In this document: in pieces, positions 49 to 1,026 of the stretch
Layout: each line of letters opens with the position of its first letter
Position numbering within the stretch: the stretch's first letter is position 1
Source of the DNA: Escherichia coli
GTDB taxonomy: Bacteria; Pseudomonadota; Gammaproteobacteria; Enterobacterales; Enterobacteriaceae
Strand: one strand, 5' to 3'
DNA length: 1,026 nt
NCBI RefSeq assembly: GCF_003334405.1
Contig: NZ_QOWM01000050.1
Made by a program: the position numbers and the translations under genes
The notes under the pieces: generated by a model
Told to the model about the DNA's origin: nothing
Databases searched by the model: none
Seen by the model: the letters and a program-made list of their open reading frames with translations, nothing else

Positions 49-549
49 TCAAAATCTGTTCACTACAGCAGTCACCAGAGTTTCTAACTGTTTCGCTGTT
101 TGCTGACAAATATTAAGCGCATCATTAATTTCCTTTCTGAATTCAGGATCGTTAACAATACAAAATCTGTCACCACTAATGATATAATGAACATTGCGTC
201 CGAGTTTGTTAATTTCCGTTTTAAGTCTCCTGATTTCTTTAATCTCATCAGGATAAAGACAGACTTCATTTTTTAACAAAGACTGACGTACACGAATAGC
301 AATTTCTCTGCTCATGCTCATGCCGTGAAGGACAGCATTACGTTTAACAAGTTCTATTTCATGAGGGTAGAGATAAGTGAAAACTGGTTTTGCAGCCTCA
401 TTCTTAACAGGAATAGATACTGGCTTTGTTGGTACATCAAGAACTTTCATTTTTGCGAATACATTTACACTATCAACTCCATATGAAGCTGCATTTACTC
501 TCGCAAGTTCATATTCATCATCATTTAATCTAAAACATACATTTTTCAT
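49..549 (-). CDS. Hypothetical DNA-binding protein with tandem ribbon-helix-helix (RHH)-like repeats; 166 aa from the ATG at 547-549 (track ORF 49..624 uses an upstream TTG)
   Basis: Uninterrupted minus-strand reading frame ending in TGA at 49-51. In-frame ATG at 547-549 is preceded by GGTGA (554-558), a plausible Shine-Dalgarno. I spot-checked the track translation against the sequence (residues GMSMS at 310-324; C-terminal NRF at 52-60). The protein has repeated modules of a short hydrophobic strand followed by an acidic helix (VCFRLNDDEYELARVNAASYGVDSVNVFAKMKVL; VFTYLYPHEIELVKRNAVLHGMSMSREIAIRVRQSLL), each with a G-x-(D/S)-x-S turn typical of CopG/Arc/MetJ-type RHH domains. The gene could not be matched to a named family from memory. 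Confidence 0.6.
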   Translation of the reverse strand: MKNVCFRLNDDEYELARVNAASYGVDSVNVFAKMKVLDVPTKPVSIPVKNEAAKPVFTYLYPHEIELVKRNAVLHGMSMSREIAIRVRQSLLKNEVCLYPDEIKEIRRLKTEINKLGRNVHYIISGDRFCIVNDPEFRKEINDALNICQQTAKQLETLVTAVVNRF

Positions 550-553
550 TCTT

Positions 554-558
554 TCACC
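554..558 (-). promoter_or_regulatory. Candidate ribosome-binding site (GGTGA) for the ATG at 547-549
   Basis: Minus-strand sequence reads ...ctctatGGTGAaagaATGaaaaat...; GGTGA matches the 3' part of the AAGGAGGTGA consensus, 4 nt before the ATG. Confidence 0.35.
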
Positions 559-563
559 ATAGA

Positions 564-598
564 GCCTGCGGCAGGCACAGGCAAAAACATCGTTTTTG
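564..598. promoter_or_regulatory. Pair of inverted repeats just upstream of the RBS: GCCTGC-g-GCAGGC (564-576) and CAAAAAC-atc-GTTTTTG (582-598); candidate operator
   Basis: Both are perfect inverted repeats read directly from the sequence. The CAGGC motif occurs three times: once inverted (564-568) and twice direct (572-576, 578-582). They lie between the candidate promoter and the ATG, where RHH repressors typically bind. Confidence 0.3.
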
Positions 599-611
599 GA
601 CAATCTACTGA

Positions 612-627
612 AAATTGCATGCAATTT
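612..627. promoter_or_regulatory. 16-bp perfect palindrome AAATTGCATGCAATTT; candidate protein-binding site overlapping the candidate -10
   Basis: Positions 612-627 are exactly self-complementary across a GCATGC core. A perfect 16-mer palindrome is unlikely by chance in 1 kb (rough expectation on the order of 0.01-0.02). Confidence 0.35.
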
Positions 628-642
628 CTAGTGGATTGTCTA
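614..642 (-). promoter_or_regulatory. Candidate sigma70-like promoter for the RHH-repeat gene: -35 TAGACA (637-642), 17-bp spacer, -10 TGCAAT (614-619)
   Basis: Hexamers and spacing read on the minus strand. The -35 is a 5/6 match to TTGACA; the -10 is only a 4/6 match to TATAAT and lacks the conserved A at position 2. An alternative is -10 TATAGT (658-663) with a weak -35 TTTATA (682-687, 18-bp spacer). Neither is strong; this is a prediction only. Confidence 0.2.
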
Positions 643-777
643 TCCTGCATTGATTGTACTATATGTGGCGCTGTGCCTAGCTATAAAATCGTCGCTGCAT
701 ATGTCCAGATTTCGTTGCTGAAAGGTTCTTTCGTCTTCGACCATCTGGCAAACGTATAGCTGAAAGATTTGTGAAAG

Positions 778-801
778 AAAAAACAAGCCTGGCAGGGCTG
801 G
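778..801 (-). terminator. Possible weak terminator for the upstream minus-strand gene: short stem (AGCC/GGCT) followed by a T6 run on the minus strand
   Basis: Minus strand reads ...ccAGCCctgccaGGCTtgTTTTTTcTTTc (A-run 778-783 on the plus strand). The stem is only 4-5 bp, so this is marginal. Confidence 0.2.
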
Positions 802-806
802 GAATT

Positions 807-833
807 GTTACGGCTGAAGCCGTAACGCTTTTT
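807..833 (+). terminator. Intrinsic-terminator-like structure: 8-bp stem GTTACGGC/GCCGTAAC with TGAA loop, then GC + TTTTT
   Basis: Perfect inverted repeat 807-814/819-826 followed by a T5 run at 829-833 on the plus strand. No plus-strand gene is evident upstream, so its function is unclear. The same stem forms on the minus-strand transcript but is followed there by AAUU, not a U-run. Confidence 0.3.
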
Positions 834-860
834 AAGTCCTCGCTGCGCTGCGGGGCTTCC

Positions 861-894
861 GGCGCAAAGCGCCTCCCATGCCCTTACAGGGCAT
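861..894. repeat. Two adjacent short GC-rich stem-loops in the 3' region of the upstream gene: GGCGC-aaa-GCGCC (861-873) and ATGCCCT-tac-AGGGCAT (878-894)
   Basis: Both are perfect inverted repeats read from the sequence. They lie 16-49 nt downstream of the TAA at 910-912 on the minus strand. Neither is followed by a U-run, so they are more likely 3'-end stabilising structures or protein sites than canonical terminators. Confidence 0.3.
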
Positions 895-909
895 AAGAAA
901 CAAGGGCAA

Positions 910-1026
910 TTAAGCCCCTGCGCGATGATTGCTGACTTCTTTTTCCAGAGCCTTATTAACAAAGGCGTTCAGTGATAAATCTTCTTCCATCGCCATTTCT
1001 GCTACCCGACGATGCAGTTCTGGATC
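910..1026 (-). CDS. 3' end of a gene truncated at the window edge; C-terminal RHH-type DNA-binding domain resembling the C-terminus of HicB-family antitoxins
   Basis: Reverse complement of 913..1026 translates in frame with the window edge to DPELHRRVAEMAMEEDLSLNAFVNKALEKEVSNHRAGA, followed by TAA at 910-912. The pattern P-x-LH-x-x-(hydrophobic)-A-x-x-A-x-E-x-x-SLN-x-(F/Y/W)-(V/I) is the helix-turn-helix half of an RHH fold as I recall it from HicB-type and related antitoxins. The N-terminal part of the protein is outside the window, so the family call is tentative. It is absent from the ORF track because no start codon lies inside the window. Confidence 0.55.
   Translation of the reverse strand, partial: DPELHRRVAEMAMEEDLSLNAFVNKALEKEVSNHRAGA

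Follow-up and report, generated by a model that had tools for sequence, protein, structure and literature searches.

The pair of short palindromes at positions 564-598 of the DNA analysed here, a 1,026-nucleotide stretch from Escherichia coli that we call the window, is in all likelihood the conserved nick-distal part of the oriT of an IncX4 plasmid, and not a private operator of the neighbouring gene. Over its 1026 bases the window is 99.9% identical to the IncX4, MOBP, MPF_T plasmid pEC00704_5 (NZ_OP378631.1 17601-18626). Its genes are on the minus strand throughout, in the order taxC, taxA/ddp1, intergenic region and hicB, and the record of the matched IncX4 plasmid annotates taxC-ddp1 and hicB and carries the MOBP typing. 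In IncX plasmids ddp1 is taxA (the auxiliary protein), ddp2 is taxC (the relaxase) and ddp3 is taxD, and two oriTs are reported within long inverted repeats, the first close to taxC, the second close to ddp3 and the replication gene (PMC3402527; PMC3332091). The features of the window are collected in Table 1.

Table 1. Features of the window around the oriT unit (a slash within the nick motif marks the putative nick)
Feature	Position	Strand	Basis
End of taxC	runs to ~37	-	annotation of the closest record
taxA/ddp1, accessory protein of the relaxosome (two RHH-like repeats, helical C-terminal domain)	49..549	-	NCBIfam DDP1
Intergenic region	550-909		
Shine-Dalgarno-like GGTGA, 4 nt upstream of the taxA ATG	554..558	-	read from sequence
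Complete oriT unit (IncX 'long inverted repeat')	561..652	+	inverted second copy, boundaries, IncX literature
Distal constant box A-GCCTGC-g-GCAGGC, left end of the oriT unit	563..576	.	in all nick-anchored copies
Optional 21-nt module: third CAGGC (578-582) and A5-N3-T5 palindrome	577..597	.	absent as a block from some units
Large 21+21-nt inverted repeat, putative TaxA binding site	599..640	.	86% complementary; covariation
Nick region TATCCTG/CATTG, putative nick G647/C648	641..652	+	near-invariant; motif common to other taxA loci
Candidate taxA promoter TTTATA-N18-TATAGT, or TACAAT hexamer 658-653 beside the unit	653..687	-	promoter scan
hicB, 3' part	from 910	-	

The coordinates given for these palindromes in the original prediction are exact, base for base. 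The first consists of GCCTGC (564-569), a central g (570) and GCAGGC (571-576); after an a at 577 comes CAGGC (578-582), and the second palindrome is made up of CAAAAAC (582-588), atc (589-591) and GTTTTTG (592-598). The triplicated CAGGC described there is real, with CAGGC/GCCTG copies at 564, 572 and 578, and 572-583 doubles as a tandem CAGGCA x2. The 16-bp palindrome that had been listed as the third was also confirmed (AAATTGCATGCAATTT, 612-627), and it is the centre of the larger inverted repeat of 21+21 nt at 599-640. Chance was assessed with 2000 dinucleotide-preserving shuffles: three CAGGC/GCCTG copies within 19 nt appeared in 0.05% of them, two adjacent perfect palindromes (arm >=6, loop <=4) in 1.7%, and the eight palindrome entries of the window, against 1.6 expected, were reached in 0.3%. 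The arrangement of palindromes and CAGGC copies is not due to chance, and its conservation is a stronger argument for this than the shuffles.

Both palindromes are contained in a 92-bp unit that occurs twice on the same plasmid. The second copy (NZ_OP378631.1 25327-25237) is inverted, 7 kb away and 91/92 identical, lacking C582, and it is located between the replication genes and a ddp3-like gene, directly upstream of the latter. Two inverted units, one beside taxA-taxC and one beside replication genes/ddp3, are likewise present in three further plasmids (L003, L009, L010). At both copies a relaxosome gene, taxA or the ddp3-like gene, begins 12-20 nt beyond the box, which is the part of the unit nearest the gene, and on two full plasmids the box was found only at the two oriT copies. 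Homology ends on the left within 2-3 nt of 561 (AGCC) in 27 distinct left-flank contexts, many of them on tiny plasmids without an adjacent gene start, and on the right just past 651/652, after CTGCATT(G), in 19 right-flank contexts. The sharp divergence at the left edge implies that the GC palindrome is itself the left edge of a mobile module of 63-92 bp. The element had been regarded as private to the taxA leader, and this did not hold: the 92-bp unit also precedes the ddp3-like gene and is found in at least 27 unrelated left-flank contexts.

A BLAST search with positions 545-700 against plasmids returned 771 records, 288 of which are typed as non-mobilisable. The examples fetched were RepL or Col(MG828) plasmids of 1.4-4.2 kb that have no relaxase and carry one or two units each. 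A pattern scan added 110 metagenome and 22 genome-contig stretches with 205 matches, of which 197 were judged to be true units, representing 48 distinct sequences; about eight distinct GC-rich pattern matches in chromosomes had no inverted repeat and were treated as chance. Since the metagenome and genome pattern required the box, box conservation in that set is circular, and unbiased support comes from the BLAST-derived categories and the second units of multi-unit loci only. The box was present in 16/16 oriT copies found with a nick-only anchor in the BLAST-derived loci, and every fetched representative had it. Among complete E. coli genomes the unit is held by 292/5,426, with 528/530 places on plasmids. 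Among the 12 E. coli RefSeq matches listed, none has an annotated feature under the unit, and a scan of viral contigs for the nick region gave no matches.

Seven of the relaxase-less plasmids of 1.4-4.2 kb and many of the metagenome loci contain one or two units, and where there are two their inverted-repeat specificity types often differ. The 4237-bp plasmids, for instance, combine one window-type unit with one mcr-1-plasmid-type unit, and in the 2.1-kb plasmids two units face each other. Small-plasmid units were also seen as short contigs, some of very low coverage, in assemblies of unrelated taxa such as Flagellimonas, Streptomyces, Rhizobium, Mycobacterium and Clostridium (L131-L148); these occurrences are most likely contamination by E. 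coli miniplasmids.

Natural variants differ in which parts of the unit they keep. The box form A-GCC(T/A)GCGGCAGGC is retained alike in units that have lost 21 nt and in units where this segment is replaced. Left-arm variants of the GC palindrome include GCCAGC, GCTAGC and GCCAGCAGCAAGC and the right arm GCGGCAGGC is mostly intact; the finding of GCTAGC and GCCAGCAGCAAGC in second units of multi-unit loci shows, at the level of sequence, that the left arm is less constrained than GCGGCAGGC. The commonest small-plasmid units (66 nt; range 63-68), for example those of pEC8-10 and pColZ, lack the whole stretch ACAGGC-AAAAAC-NNN-GTTTTT (577-597), and in 2.1-kb plasmids unrelated sequence stands in its place. 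The A5/T5 palindrome covers 582-598, with its final G outside the deletion; its arms are conserved, loop sequence (ATC/CCC/CCT and others) and loop length vary, and one variant is compensatory (CGAAAAC-ATA-GTTTTCG). Conservation of the CAGGC sub-sites and their spacing among homologous loci, which had been put forward as a check, is indeed seen, but the third CAGGC is missing from the commonest small-plasmid units.

Some finer regularities were noted among the variants. T567/A577 and A567/T577 tend to pair up (GCCTGC...GGCA versus GCCAGC...GGCT), with one A/A exception, and deletion forms have G at the second position (577) of the pair; this co-occurrence may be a single clade effect. An alternative dyad register (TGC-GGCAG-GCA), suggested by the 567/577 pairing and one IncX1-like variant, was rejected because it had too few independent events and one exception. 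Helical phasing between box and repeat, in which the 21-nt deletion would amount to about two turns, was dropped because the distance separating the two is 0, 18, 20 or 21 nt in other units.

At its right end the unit carries ATCCTG/C, which we take to match the nick-region consensus of IncP/IncI plasmids, YATCCTG/Y (RP4/R64). The + strand, which bears this motif, is presumably the transferred strand. The nick, placed by the consensus only, would fall between G647 and C648, 7 nt past the inverted repeat at 599-640, with the repeat 5' of the nick on the nicked strand. The nick region is near-invariant among the units examined, with TATCCTGCA at 641-649, and in IncX1, IncX3 and three other taxA-bearing plasmids TATCCTGCAT(C/T) follows a variable inverted repeat upstream of taxA. 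The locus has the features of a MOBP-type oriT, namely a nick core on one strand, an inverted repeat 5' of it, and, next to it and reading away from it, the genes of an RHH-like accessory protein and of a MOBP relaxase.

TaxA was examined as a candidate reader of the unit. The protein scores 234.9 bits against the NCBIfam DDP1 equivalog (cut-off 150), with profile positions 1-164 on residues 1-165. Pfam Arc matches residues 55-94 (E=0.0025), NikA-like and AmrZ profiles score E=0.25 and E=0.16, and the C-terminal part matches a PcfF stalk (E=0.0012). The AF2 model (mean pLDDT 70.8) has helix-helix segments at 10-35 and 62-91 and two long helices, with no strands in the monomer, and a Foldseek search of this model against the PDB returned nothing at E<=0.001. 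Across IncX4-backbone plasmids RHH1 of TaxA is 49-89% identical; TaxC, TaxB and the Ddp3-like protein are 94-100% identical.

To follow covariation between TaxA and DNA, each taxA-adjacent unit was paired with its own TaxA, which yielded eight distinct combinations. The co-varying segments of the protein are its beta-strands, residues 2-8 (528-546, minus strand) and 55-61 (367-387, minus strand), and on the DNA they are sub-sites within 599-640, where GACAATC/GATTGTC form constant outer arms around a variable inner core. For RHH1, the strand KMIAFRL goes with the dyad centre ATGTTAACAT, KN(I/V)CFRL with ATTGCATGCAAT and (K/R)QIKFR(L/V) with TGGTACC. For RHH2, VKTCLY goes with the nick-proximal segment TTT(T)GACCAT, VSVRLY with TTTGACATCG and VFTYLY with TTTCTAG(T/C)G. 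These three types of each strand match their sub-sites in all 8 combinations with zero exceptions, and the modules recombine freely. Furthermore, the sub-sites of four further loci were predicted from the protein before inspection, and all held. The 564-598 region is identical in all 8 combinations apart from its 3-nt loop. Its constancy, while 599-640 co-varies with TaxA, indicates that this RHH-like protein probably reads the big inverted repeat and not the CAGGC copies. The left arm of 599-640 is an imperfect copy precisely in the RHH2-linked segment, so that the nick-proximal arm looks like the real binding site.

The covariation bears directly on the idea that 564-598 is an operator for TaxA, bound cooperatively at the inverted and direct CAGGC sub-sites and autoregulating taxA-taxC. 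There are grounds for it: the protein carries two RHH-like repeats, a candidate promoter and the RBS flank the sub-sites, three copies would be unlikely by chance, and the relaxosome accessory proteins of RP4, R388 and F autoregulate via oriT. However, it is the big repeat with which both beta-strands of TaxA vary, and the CAGGC region stays the same in 8 TaxA types. Natural units can do without the third CAGGC, changes in the left sub-site go uncompensated, and the CAGGC sequence is kept where no taxA gene follows. We therefore consider a TaxA operator at this position unlikely. The part of the RHH-operator proposal that stands is that of a protein-binding control region beside the gene for an RHH protein, as the sequence suggests; the part that fails concerns TaxA itself, whose specificity determinants track 599-640 and not CAGGC.

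The placement of the palindromes between promoter and RBS, which belonged to the same proposal, is plausible. An RBS-like GGTGA (558-554) just outside the oriT unit and an ATG at 549 are present on the minus strand. TTTATA-N18-TATAGT (687-658) is the sole promoter-like match upstream and agrees at 9/12 positions; the scan found 3 promoter-like sites versus 2.0 expected from shuffles, and hence no enrichment. The candidate promoter (653-687) is conserved at the taxA-side copies of large plasmids and replaced in three small taxA-bearing contigs (L032, L099, L136). These contigs contain window-type taxA and oriT, and beyond the nick their sequence is unrelated to the large-plasmid context, so that the candidate promoter is not among what travels with taxA.

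We also asked whether the stems are conserved as structure or as sequence, counting pairs in an alignment of 19 distinct full-length units. The repeat at 599-640 has compensatory changes on both sides in 11/19 pairs. In the GC stem five of six pairs are invariant and T567-A573 is unpaired in 6/19 units, uncompensated; in the A/T stem five pairs do not vary, a single sequence shows a compensatory change and one cell is unpaired. Conservation of the small palindromes is thus at the level of sequence, with almost no covariation, and variation of this kind is compatible with a hairpin as well as with a dyad bound by protein. Folded as single-stranded DNA, the + strand from 556 to 652 gives three consecutive hairpins (-21.3 kcal/mol, z = -5.0). 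The small hairpins alone are weak, at -4.4 and -4.5 kcal/mol, and z for the GC one is only -1.7.

That the two small hairpins act in the 5' UTR of the taxA mRNA, setting its stability or translation, had been raised as well. The whole unit would be transcribed if the promoter lies at 653-687, and the predicted fold of the minus-strand RNA from 652 to 540 (-30.9 kcal/mol, z = -2.6) forms the same stems, including both small hairpins as anticipated. Yet the taxA RBS (GGTGA) and start codon are unpaired in this fold, the small stems are without covariation and the mismatch in the GC stem goes uncompensated in 6/19 units, and the unit is retained in either orientation and at many sites where no gene follows or starts nearby. 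Since it is conserved before another gene and in gene-less contexts, hairpin function in a 5' UTR is not what keeps it conserved, and we judge an RNA element very improbable.

A role purely as single-stranded structure deserves somewhat more credit, although we still think it rather unlikely. Here the small palindromes would serve termination by forming hairpins in the transferred strand, like the second repeat set of R64, for which this has been proposed; Furuya and Komano reportedly described in 2000 the roles of the two repeat sets in R64 termination. Such a role agrees with the three consecutive hairpins predicted on the + strand, with an A/T stem whose arms are kept while its loop varies and which has one compensatory change, and with the position of 564-598, which from the putative nick orientation would be among the last DNA transferred. 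The GC stem, however, is conserved as sequence including its loop, and tolerates an uncompensated A.A mismatch and changes in its left arm alone, and the A/T hairpin is absent from the commonest units, the isolated hairpins being weak. A role as hairpin alone is easier to reconcile with the A/T element than with the GC box.

Two resemblances to the nick core were also noted. The third CAGG (578-581) is complementary to CCTG of the nick core (644-647), and in the fold predicted for the single strand the two together close a multi-branch loop; this pairing was dropped as a candidate, since both segments are invariant. The palindrome arm GCCTGC resembles the nick hexamer TCCTGC.

The IncX long inverted repeats have also been described as the alpha and beta replication origins (PMC3332091), and 564-598 might accordingly be an initiator site at origins of the alpha/beta type that coincide with the R6K long inverted repeats. 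We find this highly improbable. The iterons (TAAACATGATAACTTCCTCGGT) bear no resemblance to 564-598, the Rep proteins diverge to 21-38% identity among plasmids with an identical box, and the unit also occurs on RepL and Col-type plasmids with unrelated replicons. In the four plasmids L002, L003, L009 and L010 the transfer proteins are 94-100% identical and the replication initiators only 21-38%, which means that a constant IncX4 transfer backbone has had its replicon swapped.

Annotation of the closest record raises one more alternative, namely that 564-598 is coding. PGAP starts ddp1 of NZ_OP378631.1 at a TTG at window position 603, so that the CDS covers window 49-603 and begins inside oriT, and the ORF is open from 624; the region would then encode an N-terminal extension of Ddp1. 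Relatives, however, annotate a protein of 166/167 aa from the ATG at 549, and the NCBIfam DDP1 profile begins at the MKNV methionine of this short form. In one locus whose 564-598 region is identical (L025) an in-frame stop lies between the box and the ATG, and the spacer from box to ATG differs by 2 nt between lineages. A coding role for 550-603 was rejected on the strength of the relatives, the profile and the L025 stop, which favour ATG 549, and we regard the extension as almost certainly an annotation error.

In the reading of 564-598 that we favour and hold to be likely, it is part of an oriT that consists, from its far end towards the nick, of the constant GC box with the second CAGGC, an optional A5-N3-T5 palindrome, the large repeat and ATCCTG/C. 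The two RHH-like repeats of TaxA would recognise the inner sequence of the large repeat, which would thereby act as an address specific to each lineage. The constant box would be a sequence-specific docking element for a relaxosome component conserved across the lineage; candidates are the TaxC relaxase, the Ddp3-like protein, a host factor and a part of TaxA that does not vary. The box would be needed for full oriT activity and the A/T palindrome would be a dispensable spacer or an enhancer. By eye, no match to the IHF consensus WATCAANNNNTTR was seen on either strand of 560-660.

If the + strand is nicked at G647/C648, as the model of RP4 and R64 would have it, transfer would run rightwards from 648 and 561-647 would enter the recipient last. 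The three hairpins may then help the relaxase to recognise where the transferred strand ends and to rejoin it. Because a relaxosome gene starts 12-20 nt past the box at both copies, assembly of the relaxosome on the unit probably also represses taxA and the ddp3-like gene; such autoregulation, with an oriT-bound relaxosome blocking transcription into these two genes, is a plausible side effect by analogy with other systems. More speculatively, the unit may be read through two keys, a possibility that we think less likely than not. The variable key would be the inner repeat, read by a modular code in which RHH1 of TaxA matches the dyad centre and RHH2 the nick-proximal segment; the constant key would be the GC box, read by a second, conserved protein of the relaxosome, for example the small TaxC relaxase or the DUF2726/Ddp3-like protein. 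If the proposal of two keys is right, tiny plasmids collect different variable keys and always keep the constant one, and the box would be a family-level transfer licence, a target common to IncX4 (mcr-1-type) plasmids and their hitchhikers.

The closest known counterparts are the alpha and beta oriTs of R6K-type (IncX, MOBP) plasmids, with which the unit shares the family, the gene order, two inverted copies, a repeat followed by TATCCTGCA, and a box between the repeat and taxA; they are processed by TaxA/Ddp1, TaxC/Ddp2 and Ddp3/TaxD. Other IncX subgroups have the same layout, with a constant box AACCGACTGTAGGTCA between taxA and a variable repeat and then TATCCTGCATC, and this is also found away from taxA. 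In six loci (L013-L018; IncX1, IncX3, pFOS18, a Proteus plasmid and pXH1507-4) the box AACCGACTGTAGGTCA occupies the position of the palindromes described here. The IncX4 box, AGCCTGCGGCAGGC with CAGGC and the A5/T5 palindrome, differs from the AACCGACTGTAGGTCA of the IncX1, IncX3 and related loci compared. Beyond the nick core both box and repeat differ from those of IncX1, IncX3, pFOS18, the Proteus plasmid and pXH1507-4, the plasmids compared, with which the unit has in common only its layout and TATCCTGCAT, and IncX4 TaxA is only ~25% identical to the TaxA of IncX1/X3.

In an ungapped alignment AACCGACTGTAGGTCA and AGCCTGCGGCAGGCAC share CC..C.G.AGG. Around TGTAG, one variant, AACCCCGTGTAGCGGC, has CCG..CGG in place of GAC..GTC, and there is an intermediate type, GGAACCGTGGCAGCTCAGAC. 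Judged from these sequences, the IncX4 and AACCGACTGTAGGTCA boxes may be homologous, at best distantly.

More distant systems share the nick end of the unit. The oriT of IncI1 R64 (NikA/NikB) likewise has its nick motif a few nt from an imperfect inverted repeat of ~17-20 bp, and in NikA-type plasmids an RHH accessory protein is expected at the repeat, as TaxA is here. R64 has a second, shorter inverted repeat further from the nick, and its full oriT is ~92 bp. In contrast to TaxA with its two repeats, NikA has one RHH, and outside the nick core there is no sequence similarity to R64. The oriT of IncP RP4 (TraJ, TraI, TraK) shares the ATCCTG/C core at a fixed short distance from an inverted repeat. 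There too the relaxase operon reads away from oriT, so that promoter and leader overlap it. No leading-side wrapping protein like TraK of RP4 is evident here, and we know of no RP4 counterpart of the distal box.

IncX4 plasmids are major vehicles of mcr-1 colistin resistance. A study of IncX4 transfer found taxA and taxC to be essential and never mentions oriT (PMC8725589), and for an mcr-1 IncX4 plasmid oriTfinder gave an oriT-like region at a 14-bp inverted repeat, GCAGGTGAGCAAAG...CTTTGTTCACCTGC (PMC6287198), which is a different place from the long-inverted-repeat units described here. In the literature consulted we found no experimental mapping of oriT for IncX4. Plasmids with only an oriT (pOriT), which borrow a helper relaxosome, and an 'R6K-like' oriT family have been described (PMC10123127). 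Units of our family likewise sit on small relaxase-less plasmids; the difference is that many carry two units of different inverted-repeat specificity, a description of which we did not find in the literature. The unit is best read as an R6K-like (IncX, MOBP) oriT, and the family, the two-copy arrangement and the oriT-only hitchhikers are already known; 564-598 is one of its conserved parts, and the class of element is an ordinary one, found here in a lineage without prior dissection. What we did not find described is the exact IncX4 unit with its boundaries, the constant distal box as a separate element, and the modular match between TaxA repeats and sub-sites. With its precise bounds and its division into a constant and a variable portion, the 92-bp unit can be taken straight into the design of mobilisation assays, allows prediction of the small plasmids that a given IncX4 helper can move, and corrects both gene-start and oriT annotation.

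Elsewhere in the window, an Rfam scan gave one sub-threshold snoRNA match only, which is irrelevant. The intergenic region holds further perfect palindromes at 806-827 (+), 878-894 and 900-921 (-). Two of them score as terminator-like: the first is on the + strand, and the second, on the minus strand, overlaps the hicB stop codon.
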